Origin: Parcubacteria bacterium C7867-004
GTDB lineage: Bacteria; Patescibacteriota; Minisyncoccia; Phycocordibacterales; Phycocordibacteraceae
Reading direction: 5' to 3'
NCBI GenBank assembly: GCA_001189075.1
Contig: LFCN01000006.1
Location: 321,746-385,745, forward strand
DNA length: 64,000 nucleotides
The notes under the pieces were generated by a model that had not been told where the DNA came from, searched no databases, and saw only the letters and a list, made by a program, of their open reading frames with translations. The stretch's first letter is position 1. Each line of letters opens with the position of its first letter. This document shows, in pieces, positions 26,508 through 51,682 of this stretch. A program made the position numbers and the translations under genes.

Positions 26508-27641
26508 TTACTTCTTCTTTCCTGCGTATGCGAGCGTCATGCGCTGGTCCTTCGGTTCGAAGAGGGTGATCGTGAACGGGTAGGTCTTGCCGAGCTCGAG
26601 CTCCTCGCGAAGCGTCGATGGGGAAGCGAACTCGCTGATGTGCACCAGTCCGGCGACGCCTTCCTCGATGGAAGCGAGCGCGCCGTGCTTGTTGTACTTG
26701 ATGATGACACCGGAGACTTCCATGCCCTTCTGGTACCGCTCGGACGCGGTCTTCCATGGGTTCTCCTTGAGCGCCTTCACCGAAAGCGATACCTTGCCAT
26801 CCTTCACTTCGATGACCTTCACCTTTACGGTGTCACCGACCTTGAAGAGCGTGCGAGGATCCTCAACGAGTCCCCAATCGAGCTCCGAGATGTGCACGAG
26901 GCCCTCAAGACCCTGCTCGAGCTTCACGAAGACACCGAAGTCGACAGCGCCCGTGACCTCGCCGTCAACGACGTCGCCAACCTGGTACTTGTCGACGAGC
27001 GATGCCTTCTCGTTCTCCTCATCGCCCTGACGCTCGGAGAAGATGAGCTTGCCCTCCTTCGCGTCGGCCGTGATGATTCGGACCGAAAGCATGGTGCCGG
27101 CGAGCTTCTGCAGCTCCTGGAAGATCTTGTCCTTATCACCCTCGGGAACGCGTGGGTAGTGGTCCTTCGTAAGCTGGGACGCAGGGAGGAAGCCTTGGAT
27201 GCCCTGCCACGAGAGGATGAGTCCACCCTTGTTCGCCTCGTCAACCGTGAGGGTGTAGACGGCCTGTGAGGCGATAGCCTGCTCAGCTTCGCTCCAGATA
27301 GCAGCCTGACGAGCCTCCTTAAGGGAAAGCTCGATGTAGCCGTCGAGGCCGGCGGCATCGACAACCTTTGCTGAAATAGTGTCGCCCGGATTCGCCTTGC
27401 GGAGAACGTCTGCGGCGTTGAGGTACTCGCGACCGTAGATGATGCCGGTACCGAATGGCGGGAGGTCGACATAGAGACGACCGCGCACGAGCTCGATGAT
27501 GGTTCCCTCGACGAGGTCGCCGACGCGCGGAGGCACCGGGATCGAATCGATGAGCTTCTCCATCGCGTGACCCTCGGGGATCACGATGGTTGAGACGACC
27601 GGCGGAGCCTTGCGCTCCTGCGTCTGCGTTTCTTCTGGCAT
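26508..27641 (-). CDS. rpsA: 30S ribosomal protein S1 (short, four S1 domains)
   Basis: Repeated S1 OB-fold segments (GDLVEGTIIEL.., GDTISAKVVDA.., GDVVDGEVTGAVDFGVFVKL.., GDTVKVKVIEVKDGKVSLSVKA). Confidence 0.8.
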   Translation of the reverse strand: MPEETQTQERKAPPVVSTIVIPEGHAMEKLIDSIPVPPRVGDLVEGTIIELVRGRLYVDLPPFGTGIIYGREYLNAADVLRKANPGDTISAKVVDAAGLDGYIELSLKEARQAAIWSEAEQAIASQAVYTLTVDEANKGGLILSWQGIQGFLPASQLTKDHYPRVPEGDKDKIFQELQKLAGTMLSVRIITADAKEGKLIFSERQGDEENEKASLVDKYQVGDVVDGEVTGAVDFGVFVKLEQGLEGLVHISELDWGLVEDPRTLFKVGDTVKVKVIEVKDGKVSLSVKALKENPWKTASERYQKGMEVSGVIIKYNKHGALASIEEGVAGLVHISEFASPSTLREELELGKTYPFTITLFEPKDQRMTLAYAGKKK

Positions 27642-27745
27642 GTAGTAATTGGCGGGGCGTCGTGTGCGATGGGTACTAGCTACCGTGAGGCATGCTAGGG
27701 ATAGCCCATTCGCGGCCTATATACGCCCGCGCGATAGGGGATTTG

Positions 27746-27758
27746 TAGCACGGAATGC
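27746..27758 (+). repeat. 13-nt direct repeat TAGCACGGAATGC (copy 1)
   Basis: Exact 13-mer recurs at 28016-28028. Both lie in the 535-nt noncoding interval upstream of rpsA. Confidence 0.5.
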
Positions 27759-28015
27759 ATAAAAAAAGAAGCCCCGGAGGACTTTTGGAAAGATCGGACA
27801 CCCTTACGGCTTGCCGGATGTTCGGGCAGGCCGAGGTGTTTTTGGTGTTGCTCCCTGAGTCACGGCTTCGATCTCGAAAGCGTCGACCGGATGCAGGAAA
27901 CCCCTCCTGCATACGCGGGCGGTGGGGCCGACTATGCCGGCAGTGCGACGGGCATGTGCTATCACGCGCTGAACCTTCTCTAGAACATTCGAACTCAAAC
28001 GAGATGCTCGTATCA

Positions 28016-28028
28016 TAGCACGGAATGC
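28016..28028 (+). repeat. 13-nt direct repeat TAGCACGGAATGC (copy 2)
   Basis: See copy 1. The copies are separated by about 270 nt with no convincing CDS between them. Confidence 0.5.
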
Positions 28029-28138
28029 CAACGTGTCGAGGTGGGTATAAAACGACAAAAGGCTTCCGGTGAGGAAGTCTTTGTACTTGATCCGCAAGCG
28101 AATCAAAGAAAGTTCATAGAAAACCGATGAAGGGCGGG

Positions 28139-28162
28139 TCGGGGGTGGCGCTGGGCCACCCC
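28139..28162 (-). terminator. hairpin terminator downstream of the lipoprotein gene
   Basis: GGGGGTGGC-GCTGG-GCCACCCCC with a perfect 9-bp stem. The minus strand continues with a U-rich tract. Confidence 0.4.
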
Positions 28163-28176
28163 CTCTTCTCCGCGGT

Positions 28177-28557
28177 TCAGGCCGTCATGTGGCCGGAGTC
28201 GTCGGCGCCGCCCAGGTGCACGTGGCCGATGCGTTCGCTCGGCTGCCCGGTGTCGGTCGGCGACGTTTCGGTGATGCCGGAGCCGCTGGCGGTGTCGCCG
28301 AGGCCGTTGTCGATCATCGCCACGTGGCCGCTGTCGGAGCCGTTGCCCACCAGGTCGCTGCGCAGGTCCTTCATCGAGGCGCCGCCCGCGGTGATGCCGG
28401 AGCCGTCGTCCACGCTGATCAGGCCGCTGCCGCCGCTGTCGATGCCGGTCACGCGCGTCGGGTTCTGCAGGGTGCCGAAGCCGGCGGCCATGGAGCGATC
28501 GATACCTGAGCATGCGAGAGCCATCGCGGCCCCCATCATCAAATTCATGGTCTTCAT
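28177..28557 (-). CDS. small secreted lipoprotein, Gly/Ser/Asp-rich with short internal repeats
   Basis: 126 aa. Signal peptide with lipobox MKTMNLMMGAAMALAC-SG. Mature part has ~18-aa repeats (GIDSGGSGLISVDDGSGITAGGAS / SGHVAMIDNGLGDTASGSG / GHVHLGGADDSGHMTA). AGGA RBS 9 nt upstream. Lies in a ~70% GC island. Confidence 0.5.
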   Translation of the reverse strand: MKTMNLMMGAAMALACSGIDRSMAAGFGTLQNPTRVTGIDSGGSGLISVDDGSGITAGGASMKDLRSDLVGNGSDSGHVAMIDNGLGDTASGSGITETSPTDTGQPSERIGHVHLGGADDSGHMTA

Positions 28558-28625
28558 GTCGAAGTCCTCGCTTGCAAGTCGCCTCGTCCATTCGCTCGGA
28601 GTGAGCTAAGGCCGGCAACTTCGGA

Positions 28626-28654
28626 AACGTACCACCTTCTTCATCTATTGTCAA
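28626..28654 (-). promoter_or_regulatory. sigma70-like promoter (TTGACA-17-TACGTT) with shared motif TTGACAATA..GGTGGTA
   Basis: Minus strand reads TTGACAATAGATGAAGAAGGTGGTACGTT about 68 nt upstream of the lipoprotein ATG. The same TTGACAATA-N8-GGTGGTA arrangement recurs at 29178-29206. Confidence 0.45.
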
Positions 28655-28760
28655 CACCCCTGTGGATATGTCGTAATGATGAAGACTGTCCATAAACGAC
28701 TAAAGGACTCACCAAATGGTAAGTCCCGTGAATGATCTGTATTTGAAACGAAAGAGCTTG

Positions 28761-28794
28761 TGCGGGAGATGATTGACGACCACCACCTCCCGCA
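28761..28794 (-). terminator. hairpin terminator downstream of the acidic-protein gene
   Basis: TGCGGGAG-(18-nt loop)-CTCCCGCA followed by a T-rich tract on the minus strand. Confidence 0.35.
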
Positions 28795-28810
28795 CGCGCT
28801 TGCTCAGAGC

Positions 28811-29128
28811 CTATTCCGGCCCGCCGCCGCCCGGCGTCTGCGCCTCGGCAGTGACCGCGTCATCGCCATCGCCGCCATTGACCGACTCGGCCGGCGGATC
28901 GGCTTCAGCGGCCGGCTCGGGCTCGACAGCAGCTTCCGTCGCCGCGACCTCGACGACATCGCTCGCGGCGCCGCCCTTGGTGGAGTCGAGCCCGGCCTCG
29001 CTGGCGTCGGTCGTGTTGTCGCCGCCGCCCGCGCCGGTCTCGACGACGTCGCCGCCCGAGTCTTCGCCCATGGTCATGGAGCAGACGCTGCTGAAGAGGT
29101 GCATCTTGTCGATCGCACGCTTGTCCAT
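28811..29128 (-). CDS. small acidic low-complexity protein (105 aa)
   Basis: Start MDKRAIDKMHLFSSV with AAGGA RBS. Rich in Gly/Asp/Glu/Thr/Ala (..GEDSGGDVVETGAGGGDNTTDASEAGLDST..EPEPAAEADPPAE..GGGGPE). Same island and promoter architecture as the lipoprotein gene. Confidence 0.4.
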   Translation of the reverse strand: MDKRAIDKMHLFSSVCSMTMGEDSGGDVVETGAGGGDNTTDASEAGLDSTKGGAASDVVEVAATEAAVEPEPAAEADPPAESVNGGDGDDAVTAEAQTPGGGGPE

Positions 29129-29177
29129 CGATCTTTGTCCTTGTGTTTGCCCCCAGTTAAGTCCGGGTCGCGAAAGC

Positions 29178-29206
29178 AAAATACCACCCGTATGTAGTAT
29201 TGTCAA
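29178..29206 (-). promoter_or_regulatory. sigma70-like promoter (TTGACA-17-TATTTT) with shared motif TTGACAATA..GGTGGTA
   Basis: Minus strand reads TTGACAATACTACATACGGGTGGTATTTT about 50 nt upstream of the ATG at 29128. Confidence 0.45.
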
Positions 29207-29280
29207 TTTGCGGCCGGCGGAAGGGAATTCGAACGCGTGCGCTCGCGACATGAAGCGCCCTTCATGGTAAAATTGAGGTA

Positions 29281-29925
29281 ATGGTCATCACCCACCACGG
29301 CGGGCAATGCTTCAAAGTTACGCTTGGCGACCTCACCCTCGTCTTCGATCCCGTTTCTAAAGGCGGTACTCTTCCTGCGGTCCGCTTCGGCGCGGACATC
29401 GCCCTTGTTACTCGCAATCATCCCGATATGAATGGCACCGACGAAGTGTCATTTGGCGGCAAGGAGCCGTTCATTATCCGCGGACCGGGAGAATATGAGC
29501 ACTCGGGTGTTACGGTCCAGGGATTTCTCACCAAGAGTCAGTACGGGTTGCCGAAGAGCCAGCTCGACGCGGTGAACACAGTCTATGCGGTTACGCTCGA
29601 GGGCATGACGCTGGTGCACCTCGGTGCGCTCTCCGACACTGTGCTTTCACACGAGGCGAGGGAAGCCATCGATGATATCGATATCCTTTTCGTACCGGTG
29701 GGAGGCGATGGCGTACTGTCTCCGGCAGAAGCGAGCAAGCTCGCGGTCACGCTCCAGCCGAAGGTCATCATCCCGATGCACTGGGAAGGCATGGGCGAAG
29801 CCAAAGCGCTCGACTCGTTCCTTAAAGAAGAAGGAAGCAAGGACGCCGAGAAGGTCGACAAGCTGACTATCAAGAAGAAGGATGTCGCCGACAAGGACGG
29901 TGCTATCATAGTCGTAACGGCATAA
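29281..29925 (+). CDS. MBL-fold metallo-hydrolase
   Basis: 214 aa. Degenerate HxHxDH-like segment VTRNHPDMNG plus downstream His/Asp ligand spacing (LVHLGALSD, IPMHWEG) consistent with a beta-lactamase-fold hydrolase. Confidence 0.5.
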   Translation: MVITHHGGQCFKVTLGDLTLVFDPVSKGGTLPAVRFGADIALVTRNHPDMNGTDEVSFGGKEPFIIRGPGEYEHSGVTVQGFLTKSQYGLPKSQLDAVNTVYAVTLEGMTLVHLGALSDTVLSHEAREAIDDIDILFVPVGGDGVLSPAEASKLAVTLQPKVIIPMHWEGMGEAKALDSFLKEEGSKDAEKVDKLTIKKKDVADKDGAIIVVTA

Positions 29926-30297: not shown

Positions 30298-32772
30298 ATG
30301 GCTAAGAAAGCAGACAACACGCCCGTACCCGCGGCAGAGCCGCGCGTAAGCATCATCGATCAGTCGATCACGACTGAGATGCGTACAAGCTATCTCGACT
30401 ACGCGATGTCGGTCATAACCTCGCGCGCGCTTCCAGATGTCCGTGATGGACTGAAGCCGGTGCATCGCCGAATCCTCTACGCGATGCGTATGACGGGCCT
30501 TACGCCGACCGCTAAGTTCAGAAAGAGCGCGACGGTGGTGGGAGAGGTGCTTGGTTCCTATCACCCGCACGGCGACGCGTCGGTGTACGACGCGATGGTA
30601 AAGCTCGCGCAGGATTTCAGTACTCGCTATCCGCTCGTGGCGGGACAGGGTAACTTCGGATCGATCGACGGGGACCCAGCCGCAGCCTACCGTTACACCG
30701 AGGCGAAGATGTCGCGCATCGCCGACGAGATGCTCCGTGACCTCGAGAAAGACACTATCGAATGGGCGCCAAACTTCGACGCGTCGAAACAAGAACCGAC
30801 CGCGCTTCCGGCAGCTGCTCCGAACCTGCTCCTTAATGGTGCGCTCGGTATCGCGGTGGGTATGGCAACCAACATCCCGCCGCATAACCTGCGCGAGGTG
30901 GTGGATGCGACGACGACGCTCATCGATAATCCTGACGCGACTACCGACGACCTGCTCGTGCACGTGAAGGGACCCGACTTCCCGTTGGGCGCCATCGCGT
31001 TCAACCAGACCGATATCAAGCACGCGTATACCACCGGCCGCGGGGGCGTTATCGTGCGCGGAGAAGCAGATATCGTCGAAGAGAAGAAGGGGACCAGCAT
31101 CATCATTACGTCGATTCCCTACCGCGTGAACAAGGCGGACCTCATCACTCGGATTGCTGATCTTGTCAGGGACAAGAAATTGGAGGGCATCAAGGACCTG
31201 CGCGATGAATCGACCTCCGATATCCGCATCAACGTAGAGCTGAAGAGTTCGGCATATCCGCAGTCCGTGCTCAATAACCTCTATAAGCACACCGAGCTCG
31301 AGAGCACCTTCCACTACAACATGCTCGCGCTCGTCGACGGCGTGCCGCAGACCCTTTCTCTTAAGGGTATGCTCGAAGCGTTCATTGGACACCGCAAGGA
31401 GGTAGTGAAGCGAAGAACGGAGTATGAGCTCCGTAAGGCGGAGGAGCGCGAGCATATCCTGCTTGGTCTCTCGAAGGCGCTCGACCACATCGAGGAGGTC
31501 ATCAAGATCATCCGCGCGTCCAAAGACGTGCCTACTGCTGATCTCGCACTCCGCAAGAAGTTCGCTTTCTCCGAGCGCCAGACTGCCGCAATCCTCGCGA
31601 TGCGCCTCCAGACGCTCGCCGGACTTGAGCGCAAGAAGATCGATGACGAGCTCAAGGAAGTACAGGCGCTCATCACTCGCCTCAAGAAGATCCTCTCAAG
31701 CGCGAAGAACATTCTTGCGGTGGTGCGAGAAGAGCTCGTCGAGCTCCGCGACAAGTACGGGGATGATCGTCGCACCAAGATCGTAAAGGGCGGCGTGAAG
31801 AATATTTCCATGGAAGACCTCGTTCCGGACGAGGAGTCGGTGCTCGTGCTTACCGCCGGCGGCTACGTGAAGCGGACCAATCCTGAGGAATATAAAATCC
31901 AGAAGCGCGGCGGCGTAGGCGTTATCGACATGTCCACTAAGGAAGAGGACGTGGTGACACATTTCCTTAAGGCGAGCGCACATTCCGACCTCCTCTTCTT
32001 CACTGATTACGGAAAGGCGTACCAGATGAAGATGTACGAGCTGCCGGAGGGCAAGCGCGCGACGAAAGGAAAGTCGATGATGAACTTCCTGCAGCTGGCT
32101 GCTGAGGAGAAGGTAACGAGCGTGCTTGCGGTGCCGAAGGGCTCCGCGCAGGAGGCGCTCTCCGTGTTCTTCGTCACGCAGGAGGGCGTGGTGAAGAAGG
32201 TGGCAGCCAAGTCATTCGCCGACGTTCGTCGTTCTGGCATCATCGCCATAGCGCTCAAAGGCGGCGACAAGCTCGTTTCGGCATCGCTTGCCGGAGACGG
32301 CGACAGCATTTCTATAGTAACGGCCAAGGGTCAGAGCATCCGGTTTGATGAGGCTGATACGCGCGCGATGGGACGCGTTGCAGCCGGCGTCCGCGGCATG
32401 AGCGTGAAGAAGGGCGACCGGATCGTATCGGCTGAGGTAGTACCCGCGATAGCAAAGGGTGCGGCGCTCCTTATCATCATGGAGAAGGGCTACGGCAAGA
32501 AGACTCCGCTTTCCGAATACAAGATCCAAGGACGAGGAGGCTCGGGCATCAAGACTGCGGACGTAACGGCTAAGACCGGCGACATCATCGGCGCGAAGGT
32601 GCTTATCGGCGGCGAGGATACGGCGGTAGAGGAGCTCGTGGTCATCTCAAAGAAGGGGCAGGTCATCCGCTGCACGACGGCTGAGATTCCTTCCCTCTCA
32701 CGCGCGACGCAGGGCGTCCGGGTCATGAAGATGCGCGAAGGGGATTCCATCGCTTCGATGGTCGCCCTCTAG
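30298..32772 (+). CDS. gyrA: DNA gyrase subunit A
   Basis: [18 protein letters not shown], active-site region AAMRYTE-like ([11 protein letters not shown]), and C-terminal beta-pinwheel repeats. 824 aa. Confidence 0.95.
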
Positions 32773-50702: not shown

Positions 50703-50944
50703 CCGGCGCGCTTACGAACATGTTGGCCGAGGCCGACTCGTTCGCAAGCACCATAGGATACTACAGGAGAGTGATTTTCTCGTCAAGGGATTTTAGGGAG
50801 GAAATGAGGAGGGTGTGGATAACGTGTCGTTCATACTGGGACACTTCAGTTTTATGATTCGTGTGTTATAGTGTAGTGGGGACCGACGCTAACGCATCGG
50901 TAGCCTAATTGTTGAAACTCGCGACCTCAAAGGGGTTTTATTGG

Positions 50945-51682
50945 ATGATACGAACAAGATTGGTGGGCTGCTTCGGCGCGGCCATGGTTCTCGCGCTTGC
51001 GGCGAATGCCCGGGCGGCGACGAACCTCATCGTGAACGGGGGCTTCGAAGCTCCGCTCGCGGGCAACGGCGCCTACTATCAGGCGTTCGGCGGCCAGGAC
51101 ATAGGTGGCTGGACGGTTACTGGGCGGGACATCCTCCTGCTCGACCGCAACTACACGGAGACCGGCCTGGTCTTCAATTCAGCTGCGGGCGATCAGGCGG
51201 CTGACATTACCGGCGCCGGCAACACCAGCGAAGAGGACGGGCTCGAGCAGACGGTGCTCGTCGACCCCGGTCAGCTGTATAGGCTGTCCTTCGACGTCGG
51301 GAACGCGGCGCCGTTCGGCGTGAATTCGTGGGCCTACACGCTCCCGAGCACGGTCCGACTCACCTTCGATGATGGCGATCCTGGGCCGGTGGTGTTCCTC
51401 ACCACCGGCCCGCTCGAGTTCACCAATGCCATCGACAACCCGTCGGGCAGTCCGGGGATCAACTTCCAGAGGTTCTCGGTCGACTATCTCGGCACGAGCA
51501 CCGGTCAGGTGAAGATCCGGTTCTTCAACGGCGTGGGCAACGACAACTACGTCGGCCTCGACAACGTCGTGTTCGAGAAGGTCGCTGCGGCGGTGCCGGA
51601 ACCCTCGTCGTGGGCGCTGATGATCATCGGCTTCGGCGGAATGGGCGCCATGATTCGGCGTCGCCGACTGCAAGCGGCCTAG
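50945..51682 (+). CDS. PEP-CTERM sorting-domain protein
   Basis: Signal peptide (LVGCFGAAMVLALAANARA). N-terminal NGGFE..GW beta-sandwich-like domain. C-terminal VPEPSSWALMIIGFGGMGAMIRRRR is a textbook PEP-CTERM motif (VPEP, hydrophobic helix, basic tail). Lies in an approximately 66% GC island. Confidence 0.6.
   Translation: MIRTRLVGCFGAAMVLALAANARAATNLIVNGGFEAPLAGNGAYYQAFGGQDIGGWTVTGRDILLLDRNYTETGLVFNSAAGDQAADITGAGNTSEEDGLEQTVLVDPGQLYRLSFDVGNAAPFGVNSWAYTLPSTVRLTFDDGDPGPVVFLTTGPLEFTNAIDNPSGSPGINFQRFSVDYLGTSTGQVKIRFFNGVGNDNYVGLDNVVFEKVAAAVPEPSSWALMIIGFGGMGAMIRRRRLQAA

Follow-up and report, generated by a model that had tools for sequence, protein, structure and literature searches.

Several described systems bear on the arrangement analyzed here. 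Phage morons, as described by Hendrix and co-workers for the lambdoid phages, are said to be autonomous units of promoter, ORF and terminator that lie between conserved genes and often deviate in composition. In hypervariable islets, or plasticity slots, strain-specific small genes are found between conserved core genes, and in integrons one resident promoter expresses exchangeable cassettes. Promoters controlled by the DnaA box, a 9-mer with the consensus TTATCCACA (TT[A/T]TNCACA), include the dnaA and sda type targets of E. coli and B. subtilis.

The locus belongs to Parcubacteria bacterium C7867-004 (Paceibacterota), an uncultured groundwater bacterium with a metagenome-assembled genome of approximately 780 kb. 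The 64 kb stretch of this genome that was analyzed as a whole is called the window in the following. In the gap between rpsA, which encodes ribosomal protein S1, and the divergently oriented genes for an MBL-fold protein and gyrA it carries two small ORFs, ORF126 and ORF105 (Table 1), which are present in GenBank as KND47221.1 and KND47222.1, each annotated as a “hypothetical protein”, and on which public gene callers agree. The literature search turned up the genome paper alone and nothing on the rpsA-MBL locus. The host lineage is regarded as symbiotic (PMC4508563). By themselves the two ORFs are ordinary lineage-specific “hypothetical proteins”, and it is the comparative pattern that counts.

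We compared the locus with those of 80 related species, in 72 of which the gap was measured. The gene order pth-S1-[gap]-MBL-TM protein-gyrA is preserved wherever the contigs extend, and between these conserved flanks (S1, MBL, gyrA) the gap varies from 121 to 3010 bp in length and also in content, as expected of an islet. Unlike an islet, the rpsA slot keeps its promoter module while the payload changes, and its payloads all carry the same extreme codon signature, whatever the host genome. It resembles an integron in that a resident conserved promoter precedes variable small ORFs with a hairpin after each, but the slot neighbours S1, pth, MBL and gyrA, some of the payloads bring a promoter of their own (P105 in Table 1), and the likeness is functional only; the conserved neighbourhood of the slot revealed neither an integrase nor attI or attC-type repeats. 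The ORF105 unit is similar to a moron, being a clean 533-bp unit of promoter, one small ORF and terminator with a GC content 14 points above that of the surroundings, but it is placed between chromosomal housekeeping genes, matches no phage family and has no phage genes nearby. Our overall explanation, to which we assign a probability of roughly 60%, is that the gap contains two single-gene units in a hypervariable slot, with ORF126 as a clade-specific family member on a conserved platform, ORF105 as an orphan cassette, and a codon preference that all payloads of the slot have in common.

Table 1 Features of the gap between rpsA and the MBL-fold gene (positions in the 64 kb window).
Feature	Coordinates	Strand	Description
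rpsA promoter and leader	27643..27777	-	Conserved in >25 relatives; other border of the variable slot
Third unit	27769..28039	-	Consensus promoter 28012-28039, predicted transcript of ~230 nt, terminator 27769-27784
ORF126 3' region	28045..28163	-	Strong hairpin 28141-28163, second hairpin, terminator-like hairpin 28063-28077 with U-tract; z -3.57
ORF126	28177..28557	-	126 aa; predicted signal peptide of the Sec type, then a disordered part rich in G/S/D/T with three GH[VM] motifs
SD of ORF126	28565..28569	-	GAGGA, 7 nt before the ATG, read from sequence
Promoter P126	28626..28654	-	TTGACA, 17-nt spacer, TGg-TACGTT; predicted transcription start near 28619
Conserved box ATATCCACAGG	28659..28669	-	4 nt upstream of the P126 -35; DnaA-box-like, 8/9 to TTATCCACA
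Insertion relative to closest relative (L003)	28686..29218	-	533 bp, exactly P105, ORF105 and terminator
ORF105 terminator	28741..28795	-	14-bp stem 28760-28795 (inverted repeat I5), then interrupted U-rich tail; fold -32.1 kcal/mol, z -4.28, 0/200 shuffles equally stable
ORF105	28811..29128	-	105 aa, acidic (23 D+E, 4 K+R), G/A-rich, no signal peptide, orphan
SD of ORF105	29138..29142	-	AAGGA, 9 nt before the ATG, read from sequence
Promoter P105	29178..29206	-	TTGACA, 17-nt spacer, TGg-TATTTT (extended -10); predicted transcription start near 29171

A preliminary description of this DNA had assigned a sigma70-type promoter, a ribosome binding site and a hairpin terminator to each gene, and our analysis largely bears this out. 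As judged from their sequences, both P126 and P105 are sigma-70-type promoters with an extended -10 (TTGACA, a spacer of 16-18 nt, TGn and TAnnnT). The -35 is perfect in both, and the -10 hexamers are imperfect, with three of six consensus positions in P126 and four of six in P105. P105 scores 10/12 plus TG and is among only five full consensus promoters in the 64 kb. The hairpins downstream from ORF126 and ORF105 are real (fold z -3.6 and -4.3, respectively); behind ORF126 the first hairpin has no adjacent U-tract, which follows only the third and weaker one. The two ORFs would form two separate minus-strand transcription units, and since both combine a near-consensus promoter of the housekeeping-sigma type with a good SD and end in a hairpin terminator, each unit probably yields an abundant short mRNA, the expression level being our prediction from these signals. 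An exact 13-nt repeat of the -10 region of the S1 promoter is found at 27746-27758 and 28016-28028, the latter copy in the promoter of the third unit.

The locus had also been described as a GC-rich island of 68-70% GC with an unusual composition. In 400-bp windows over the 64 kb the GC content has a mean of 0.569 (sd 0.037) and a maximum of 0.703 at 28151, and the two highest peaks are indeed ORF126 (0.693) and ORF105 (0.713). It is, however, two peaks rather than one island, as the spacer at 28558-28810 is 51% GC and 28100-29260 as a whole reaches 63.7%. The sliding-window GC and the codon usage both set the two ORFs apart from the rest of the window, with 69% and 71% GC against 57%, and GC3 values of 0.93 for ORF126 and 0.87 for ORF105 where every other real gene in the window falls between 0.55 and 0.83. 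The excess of GC has two sources, namely the G/A/S/T/D-rich amino acid composition (GC2 of 0.55 vs 0.40) and an extreme preference for C- or G-ending codons. In ORF126 five of the eight Leu codons are CTG, vs 11% genome-wide, and GTG, AGC and GCC are also favoured, unlike in the host.

ORF126 matches the syntenic protein of a relative (L009) with a BLASTP E of 2e-8, and a profile search among 5.8 billion proteins returned a family of 12 proteins with a loose alignment (mean column identity 40%). By these sequence comparisons ORF126 is a member of a tiny, clade-restricted family that diverges rapidly. The AF2 model from the 12-row alignment has a pLDDT of 45 and predicts no fold. The repeats of approximately 18 aa that had been ascribed to the protein could not be reproduced, since the protein matches itself best when shifted by 33 aa, and this match is marginal (equalled by 32 of 500 shuffles). 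The DNA copies of the internal repeat lie 99-105 nt apart, which corresponds to a weak period of approximately 33-35 aa. No tandem repeats were found in the DNA of the stretch, RTX-type repeats (GGxGxD) gave no Pfam match at E up to 1, and for both ORF126 and ORF105 zero matches were obtained in Pfam, NCBIfam, PHROGs and PADLOC. We also considered paralogy between ORF126 and ORF105 and rejected it (BLASTP E 24; the family profile aligned to ORF105 by hhalign over 9 residues, E 0.19). A RiPP precursor would have adjacent genes for modification enzymes that co-vary with it; here S1, MBL and gyrA are present with or without the payload.

ORF105 is of a different kind. In 1.84 billion representative proteins it found only itself, and it has no match in any frame in the 80 related loci. 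The preliminary reading of the protein as acidic and disordered holds, with the charge given in Table 1 and an AF2 model (pLDDT 56) with a helix at residues 3-13 only and no predicted fold. Alignment to the closest relative shows where the unit begins and ends: positions 28660-28685 of the window correspond to 5901-5926 of L003 and those from 29219 onwards to 5927 onwards, so that the two borders are contiguous in L003. Neither a target-site duplication nor terminal inverted repeats were found at the 533-bp insertion. An 11-nt repeat, CGGCCGGCGGA, occurs at 28888 and 29211 and does not flank the insertion. A duplication of the MBL promoter and 5'-end as the source of the insertion found no support: positions 28706-28737 are weakly similar to the MBL promoter of one relative (L019), and the score within the window is below that of shuffles. 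In the mechanism that we propose, ORF105 would be a species-specific orphan cassette inserted between the P126 platform and the MBL promoter, and its product would be a cytoplasmic, very acidic, disordered protein.

At the DNA level only two blocks in the gap are conserved with the relatives, the S1 leader and the P126 module (28619-28685). Alignment of this module shows that P126 is orthologous in 18 loci, those of the window and 17 relatives. Immediately upstream it includes the operator-like box ATATCCACAGG, found at the ORF126 promoter and absent at P105. The pattern [AT]TATCC[AC]CAG, representing this box, was found at 18 places in 74 kb of slot sequence vs four in 746 kb outside, a 45-fold enrichment. 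The box is a perfect TTATCCACA at eight sites in the relatives. Like the DnaA-box-controlled promoters, the slot has its box within the promoter or adjoining it, reading (A/T)TATCCACAGG. Unlike those promoters it has a single box, which in four relatives is ATATCCCCAGG, with a C at position 7 that alters a position held essential for DnaA, and unlike the DnaA consensus it has a conserved GG extension. A replication origin at the locus was rejected, since the GC skew does not switch and only one box, not a cluster, is present. A search of viral contigs with the promoter module gave 37 matches, by our estimate roughly the number expected by chance, and none of them is the module. Most of these viral matches are tandem arrays of TTATCCACAG, which is itself DnaA-box-like. 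P126 and its box probably represent an old, conserved “expression platform” driving different small payload genes in different species.

What is placed behind the platform changes rapidly. The slot content differs even between species whose flanking proteins are 97% identical, and still the composition recurs. In the 18 loci with the P126 module the first SD-led ORF has a GC3 of 0.81-0.98 (mean 0.886), while the GC3 of the flanks ranges from 0.44 to 0.91 over the same loci and is hardly correlated with that of the payload (r = 0.14). Such SD-led ORFs of high GC3 number 21 in 46 kb of slot vs none in 416 kb outside. Translational selection for host-optimal codons was rejected as the sole cause: in low-GC relatives S1 favours T in third position and the payloads are C-ending (C3 of 0.58-0.67). 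The payloads have dN values of 0.11-0.55 vs 0.005-0.07 in the flanks, which makes them 5-30 times faster, and a dN/dS of 0.6-1.3, a range that non-functional ORFs would also show. In three of six genome pairs synonymous saturation is lower in the payload (0.14-0.36) than in the flanks (0.45-0.88), and in the other three the synonymous divergence of the payload is about equal to that of the flanks; this suggests that the payloads are younger than the flanks in the former three pairs. Between two relatives (L009 and L015) the identity is 85-92% for the promoter, 5'UTR, signal peptide and 3'UTR but 40-65% for the mature part. In having a signal peptide, conserved expression signals and a hypervariable, fast-evolving mature part the slot is similar to fast-evolving secreted effectors and surface proteins of symbionts and pathogens, but differs from them in that the ORF126 family has no predicted fold and is known here from sequence alone.

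The explanation above presumes that the minus strand is read, that both ORFs encode proteins, and that ORF126 is secreted. As had been noted, all six reading frames are open in this region, and it could be argued that the plus strand is the one read, giving ORFs of 160 and 165 aa, or that the GC-rich segments are structured RNAs. The plus-strand ORF at 28127-28609 has a GC3 of 0.91, which it owes to third positions common to ORF126. In a GC3-independent model of codon positions 1 and 2 the annotated frames of ORF126 and ORF105 have the highest score of the six, the plus frames score lower and have no cross-species match, and when frames were compared across the related loci only the sense frame of ORF126 matched its relatives. 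The three-base periodicity is confined to the ORFs, beginning and ending at their boundaries. Only for the annotated minus-strand ORFs does the stretch offer all of the expression signals together (consensus promoter, SD, start codon, terminator), the minus strand also carries the signal peptide and the family motifs, and the single promoter-like site found on the plus strand is the MBL promoter, which points away from the ORFs. The folds of the ORF regions are no more stable than shuffles (z +1.33 and -1.63), which led us to reject a structured RNA, and Rfam covariance models gave 0 matches in 27500-29800 at E up to 1. We find plus-strand or RNA genes hardly credible, and the original minus-strand assignment, with which GenBank and the public callers concur, is upheld. 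More weight must be given to the possibility that ORF105, and perhaps some other payloads of the slot, does not function as a protein gene at all. It would then be an ORF that either arose de novo not long ago or is decaying, or else a spacer that is transcribed and owes its periodic composition to the GC-rich pool. Its lack of homologs anywhere searched, its low-complexity sequence without a predicted structure, the payload dN/dS of about 1 and the ease with which close species replace payloads would all be accounted for, and the coding status of ORF105 is read solely from its periodicity, SD, promoter and terminator. On the other hand, these expression signals are fitted precisely to the ORF, with a promoter, a 43-nt leader, the SD at 9 nt, an ATG, and a stop followed by the terminator; GC3 climbs to 0.9-1.0 right at the ATG, 63% of the bases in codon position 1 are G, and ORF105 is identical in sequence across five independent assemblies. 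We regard a non-functional ORF105 as unlikely, though a serious competitor. ORF126 had been called a lipoprotein. Anchoring through Cys16, with no cleavage by signal peptidase I, would be in line with a relaxed PROSITE PS51257-type pattern, which LMMGAAMALAC fits with the Cys at residue 16 and a Lys at residue 2, and a Cys ends the hydrophobic region in four further family members. The N-terminus has the positive n-region (the Lys) and the hydrophobic h-region (KD(11) 2.05 over residues 6-16) of a signal peptide. What makes the call doubtful is the poor conservation of the Cys, which is present in five of 13 family members and missing from eight. The residue at -3 is Ala (A-L-A-C16) and not the canonical Leu, Val or Ile, and the conserved family feature past the hydrophobic region is an A-x-A site (“AMAG”) of the form D-x-A-M-A-G, in most members D-P-A-M-A-G, to which S-M-A-A at residues 22-25 corresponds in ORF126, with the expected cut before the last residue in each case. 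From this pattern we infer that the signal peptide of ORF126 is most likely cleaved by signal peptidase I at the A-x-A site; a lipoprotein is the less favoured of the two. The part thus predicted to be secreted and released would be an acidic, Gly/Ser/Asp/Thr-rich and disordered protein of approximately 100 aa with GH[IVLM] motifs.

Two further alternatives concern what ORF126 and ORF105 have in common. The preliminary description had derived co-regulation by a common factor from a motif shared by the two promoters, given with an N8 spacing that matches neither site; the motif is correctly TTGACAATA-N9-GGTGGTA. In this form both copies are confirmed, perfect and with identical spacing, and no further copies are found to define a wider set, the motif occurring exactly twice in the 64 kb where 0.13 occurrences are expected even allowing three mismatches. 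This, together with five shared bases (ATA and GG) that fall outside the canonical hexamers and TG, would be expected if the motif was the site of a dedicated regulator with a small regulon made up of these two genes. We nevertheless find such a regulator quite improbable and co-regulation unsupported, because the shared bases are those of a consensus promoter: they overlap the -35 hexamer and the extended -10 with its TGn, and these elements recur in other promoters of the clade. The slot promoters of relatives read TTGACAA(T/G)...G(T/G)TG(G/A/C)TA, GTGGTA or GTGCTA is also found in the other consensus promoters of the window (5729, 28039), and the MBL promoter has TGGTAAAAT. The likeness of P126 and P105 is limited to the -35 plus ATA and the GGTGGTA extended -10, outside of which the regions fail to align, and the truly conserved extra element, ATATCCACAGG, belongs to P126 only. 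The case illustrates how far a “shared motif” can be mere consensus promoter. The common composition, in turn, had been taken as a sign of foreign origin, in the sense that both genes were recently transferred from an unrelated GC-rich donor whose composition they retain. The atypical GC and GC3 of both genes, the codon choice of ORF126 and the clean insertion of ORF105, absent from the closest relative, are in agreement with such a transfer, and a PEP-CTERM-type gene elsewhere in the window with a GC3 of 0.83 suggests that this genome takes up GC-rich genes. The searches among 5.8 billion and 1.84 billion proteins, on the other hand, returned no homolog of either protein outside the Paceibacterota clade and no match to phage or defence families, and mobility genes, tRNA and flanking repeats were not found at the locus, whose neighbours are housekeeping genes. 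The ORF126 promoter is native, with orthologs in a set of 18 loci, the homologs of ORF126 occupy the same slot, and the same payload composition is found behind it in every species, whatever the GC3 of the host. Because the composition recurs independently of the host GC3, it points to a shared pool or process in the clade and not to one foreign event, and we consider the claim of foreign origin improbable.

For the two-unit slot with its shared codon preference, the cause of the composition that we prefer is that recombination has repeatedly exchanged or replaced payloads, drawing on a GC-rich pool within the family, and GC-biased gene conversion may have reinforced the effect. A wider version, which we offer tentatively and as a speculation, is that the rpsA-MBL gap may be an integrase-less “expression slot”. 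Here the promoter would stay fixed together with its TTATCCACAGG operator, which DnaA might recognize, and would serve small-protein cassettes, including secreted disordered peptides with GH[IVLM] motifs, that pass between species out of a common GC3-extreme pool. The cassettes would then come under diversifying selection, for instance in a role at the surface of episymbionts or in their interaction with the host; alternatively, strong local GC-biased conversion would have produced the pattern.

It is clear from the comparison that in 18 species, including that of the window, small ORFs which look unrelated to one another occupy a single fixed place in the chromosome behind a conserved promoter. 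The slot is therefore a testable case both for integrase-free cassette exchange and for GC-biased gene conversion in bacteria, and if local GC-biased conversion is true it would be an unusually clean bacterial example. More generally, the slot bears on how CPR bacteria, uncultured and symbiotic, keep renewing the small proteins that they secrete.

The two GC-rich minus-strand ORFs of this region, ORF126 and ORF105 (126 and 105 aa), are two real small genes, each with a strong promoter and a probable terminator of its own, and they lie in a slot between rpsA (encoding S1) and a divergent MBL-fold gene that is hypervariable throughout the clade. Identical sequences of both are present on contig DGYM01000008.1 of GCA_002398375.1 and in Parcubacteria bacterium C7867-004, whose annotation lists them as the hypothetical proteins AB199_02210 and AB199_02215 (KND47221.1 and KND47222.1). 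The C7867-004 genome originates from Hanford aquifer sediment and has a size of about 779 kb with 56% GC (PMC4508563).

Features of the rpsA-MBL slot and of a PEP-CTERM-type locus in the window
Feature	Position	Strand	Remark
pth		+	precedes rpsA
rpsA (S1)	26508-27641	-	
rpsA promoter and 5' leader	27643-27777	-	DNA-level conservation in >25 relatives
Exact 13-nt repeat TAGCACGGAATGC	27746-27758; 28016-28028		rpsA promoter -10 region duplicated
Sub-slot	27769-28039	-	relatives have SD-led acidic ORFs, 45-55 aa
Terminator	27769-27784		
Third consensus promoter	28012-28039	-	TCGACA, 16 nt, TGcTATGAT
ORF126	28177-28557	-	
Spacer between the ORFs	28558-28810		51% GC
P126 module	28619-28685		conserved block with ORF126 promoter
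Shared promoter motif, P126	28630-28654	-	
8-nt inverted repeat TCTTCATC/GATGAAGA	28638-28645 / 28678-28685		flanks box and -35 of P126
Insertion relative to L003	28686-29218		533 bp
ORF105	28811-29128	-	
Shared promoter motif, P105	29182-29206	-	
Palindrome CATGAAG-CGCC-CTTCATG	29249-29266	+	in MBL promoter spacer; palindromic in L003 too
MBL-fold hydrolase	29281-29925	+	
121-aa membrane protein			between MBL-fold gene and gyrA
gyrA	30298-32772	+	
Only perfect TTATCCACA in window	50814-50822	-	~120 nt upstream of the gene below, opposite strand
PEP-CTERM-type gene	50945-51682	+	245-aa secreted protein; GC 0.64, GC3 0.83

The coding strand was examined with a GC3-independent model that uses codon positions 1 and 2 only, with 20 long genes from the window as its training set. 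For either ORF the annotated minus frame scored best of the six and the in-phase antisense frame second, as was also the case for control genes. The G content of position 1 is 44% in ORF126 and 63% in ORF105. In a composition-corrected tblastn against the related loci only the sense frame of ORF126 gave matches (36 bits in locus L009 and 33 bits in L015), the best antisense score being 24 bits with E above 1. The RNA structure of the ORF regions is not unusual, and Rfam gave no match. It is clear that ORF126 is protein-coding on the minus strand, and from intrinsic signals only we conclude that ORF105 appears to be so as well, in agreement with the strand proposed in the preliminary description.

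The same description spoke of a GC-rich island. The two ORFs (69.3% GC for ORF126 and 71.3% for ORF105) are indeed the top two GC peaks of the entire window, which has a mean of 56.8% and a standard deviation of 3.7 points in 400-bp windows, but the island is not continuous, being interrupted by the spacer, and 28100-29260 as a whole reaches 63.7%. GC3 is 0.93 for ORF126 and 0.87 for ORF105; the next-ranking real genes have 0.83 and 0.79 (S1), and most lie between 0.6 and 0.75. Third-position GC climbs to 0.9-1.0 where ORF105 starts and, in ORF126, just past the signal peptide; in both it drops again at the stop codon. The codon choices of ORF126 also deviate from those of the host: five of its eight Leu codons are CTG (11% in the genome), and GTG, AGC and GCC are favoured. 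The PEP-CTERM-type gene, which carries the C-terminal sorting signal VPEPSSWALMIIGFGGMGAMIRRRR and is unexpected in Parcubacteria, is a candidate for horizontal acquisition.

ORF126 had no match in Pfam, NCBIfam, PHROG or PADLOC, and a single-sequence search among 5.8 billion proteins returned only itself. The ORF at the syntenic position in L009 is 35% identical over 82 residues (E 2e-8 with compositional adjustment), and a profile built from six syntenic proteins found no more than 12 proteins across the entire database, all domain-free and of 94-135 aa. ORF126 belongs to a tiny family, predicted to be secreted, behind an old conserved promoter. Its members have a signal peptide, a 'D-P-A-M-A-G' junction, a block 'MTSISDGLGxTGSGS' and often a C-terminal 'AGAAGHIAPS'; in ORF126 itself the central block occurs twice and the C-terminus reads '...DDSGHMTA'. 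Repeats of about 18 aa had been reported in it, but the measured period is about 33-35 aa (DNA copies 99-105 nt apart with 65-70% identity) and is barely above shuffles, and no DNA tandem repeats were detected. AlphaFold2 with a 12-row alignment gave no fold (pLDDT 45). Cys16 matches a relaxed lipobox pattern and would fit the lipoprotein that had been proposed, whereas Cys occurs in only 5 of 13 family members and the A-x-A site is general; for this reason predicted Sec export with cleavage by signal peptidase I is the better reading, and a lipoprotein is the less likely one.

ORF105 is an orphan cassette. Relative to L003, the closest relative (S1 96.6% identical), a clean insertion without flanking repeats comprises P105, ORF105 and its terminator and nothing else; in L003 the orthologous promoter is followed by an unrelated 69-aa ORF. 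Searches of 1.84 billion cluster representatives and of all frames in 80 related loci found no relatives of ORF105, and it has no detectable relationship to ORF126. With 23 acidic and 4 basic residues, no hydrophobic segment and a predicted structure limited to a short N-terminal helix (pLDDT 56), the product is probably cytoplasmic, acidic and disordered.

As originally described, each ORF has its own promoter and SD, and a probable hairpin terminator. In P126 and P105 the -35 is perfect, the spacer measures 17 nt and TGn is present, and the -10 hexamers are TACGTT and TATTTT, respectively; the SDs are GAGGA, 7 nt before the ATG of ORF126, and AAGGA, 9 nt before that of ORF105; and the 3' hairpins, which have imperfect U-tracts, fold with significant stability (z -3.6 and -4.3). 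Both genes are probably highly expressed, judging from these signals. The motif common to the promoters is TTGACAATA-N9-GGTGGTA, with exactly two matches; the N8 spacing given before matches neither site. It had been taken to imply co-regulation by a common factor. Only five promoters with a full -35 and extended -10 occur in 64 kb, three of them within 28012-29206, and the remaining ones likewise read GTGGTA or GTGCTA, the MBL promoter reading TGGTAAAAT. P105 lacks the conserved box described below, and the P105 and P126 regions do not align beyond the core elements. The shared motif is therefore the consensus promoter of the clade and no evidence for a dedicated regulator. A stretch of approximately 230 nt, located between the terminator of ORF126 and the promoter of rpsA, is enclosed by the third promoter and the terminator at 27769-27784. 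The MBL-promoter palindrome and the P126 inverted repeat may, from their sequence, be half-sites for a regulator of the divergent promoter pair.

For comparison, 80 Paceibacterota loci were fetched via the MBL neighbour (70-91% identity). The order pth-S1-[gap]-MBL-TM protein-gyrA is retained as far as the contigs reach, and the distance between the S1 and MBL start codons varies from 121 to 3010 bp among the 72 loci with both ends on the contig (1639 bp in the window). In distant relatives the gap of 121-190 bp holds only two back-to-back promoters and the S1 leader, and in closer relatives it contains small ORFs on the minus strand, one to three per locus and with strong SDs. At the DNA level conservation within the window gap is limited to two blocks, the S1 promoter/leader and the P126 module. 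The leader, with a hairpin of the form CCCT...AGTACCC right before the start codon and no Rfam match, is a candidate S1 autoregulatory leader.

The P126 module is present in 18 loci, including the window, and consists of a T-run from an upstream terminator, TTACGAC, ATATCCACAGG, 3-5 nt, TTGACAAT, a spacer with ATGAAGA, and GTGGTA. Its box is as conserved as the -35, and the pattern [AT]TATCC[AC]CAG was counted 18 times in the slots (74 kb) and 4 times in the flanks (746 kb); some relatives instead have a perfect TTATCCACAGG between -35 and -10. The box resembles a DnaA box but differs by C-for-A variants and a conserved GG extension, and DnaA is one possible candidate for its putative binding factor. 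A replication origin was rejected, as there is one box only and no skew switch. IMG/VR contigs (L086-L088, L093, L105 and others) matched by TATCCACAG-N5-TTGACAA carry tandem TTATCCACAG arrays adjoining a TTGACAA promoter element, which look like DnaA-box clusters unrelated to the Paceibacterota module.

Payloads, the small ORFs inside the slot, were chosen by an unbiased rule, which took from each locus the first ORF behind the module that is preceded by an SD and codes for 30 aa or more; this gave ORFs of 31-137 aa in 18 of 18 loci. Their GC3 is 0.81-0.98 (mean 0.886) against 0.44-0.91 (mean 0.64) for the flanking S1, MBL and gyrA genes, with no correlation between the two (r = 0.14). In loci of at most 0.56 GC, the slots (46 kb) contain 21 small ORFs with GC3 of at least 0.85, and the sequence outside them (416 kb) contains none. 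GH[IVLM] tripeptides occur in 12 of 18 payloads (15 motifs against 1.3 expected; 0 of 2000 shuffles had as many), three of them in ORF126. Tiny payloads that lack a signal peptide (39-69 aa) are the first ORF behind the module in L007, L016, L017, L021, L022, L024, L003 and L043; their ends are His-rich (for example ...HRHRHDLGHVAGAIDGS) or they begin with sequences like M-x3-PPGH[VI]G, and they share GH[IVLM] with the ORF126 family, with which they may form one very fast-diverging superfamily. A second payload family, whose proteins are 78-112 aa long and have a single transmembrane helix (MTDKKTT...VGTLLLMGATA...; GC3 0.87-0.95), sits at the MBL-nearest position of relatives (minus strand; for example L009:gap 1166-1405, L015:gap 1157-1393, L013:gap 1484-1783), where the window has the ORFan ORF105.

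In genome pairs the payloads have a dN of 0.11-0.55 against 0.005-0.07 for the flanks, and a lower NG86 dS (0.09-0.42) than MBL and gyrA (0.37-2.3). After codon-bias correction, synonymous saturation in three of six genome pairs is 0.14-0.36 for payloads and 0.45-0.88 for MBL and gyrA, and in the other three 0.56-0.79 and 0.72-0.83. L009 and L015 share 85-92% identity in the promoter, 5'UTR, signal peptide and 3'UTR, and 40-65% in the mature part.

The GC excess is a class property of slot payloads and no mark of a single foreign acquisition. Selection for host-optimal codons is rejected as its sole cause, because the highly expressed S1 of low-GC relatives prefers T-ending codons (T3 0.34-0.36) and the payloads are C-rich at third positions (C3 0.58-0.67); selection on mRNA composition is possible. 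Our preferred, tentative account is that recombination would repeatedly replace or exchange payloads, drawing on a GC-rich pool inside the family; some family members are GC-rich at third positions genome-wide (GC3 0.91 in L019, for example). GC-biased conversion may add to the excess, and each exchange would be followed by fast, perhaps diversifying, protein evolution. Such exchange is consistent with the clean insertion, with the conserved borders and with payloads that are synonymously younger in half of the genome pairs. The preliminary description was, with corrections, largely right as an observation and partly right as an interpretation: its genes, strand and signals hold, but co-regulation, the lipoprotein and a simple foreign origin are wrong or unproven.

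For a lineage that is putatively symbiotic (PMC4508563), a function of the slot proteins on the cell surface or in contact with a host would be plausible, although speculative. Taken by themselves the genes are ordinary; what deserves follow-up at whole-genome scale is the slot-wide pattern, a modestly novel variation on the 'islet' and moron-like architectures already known.
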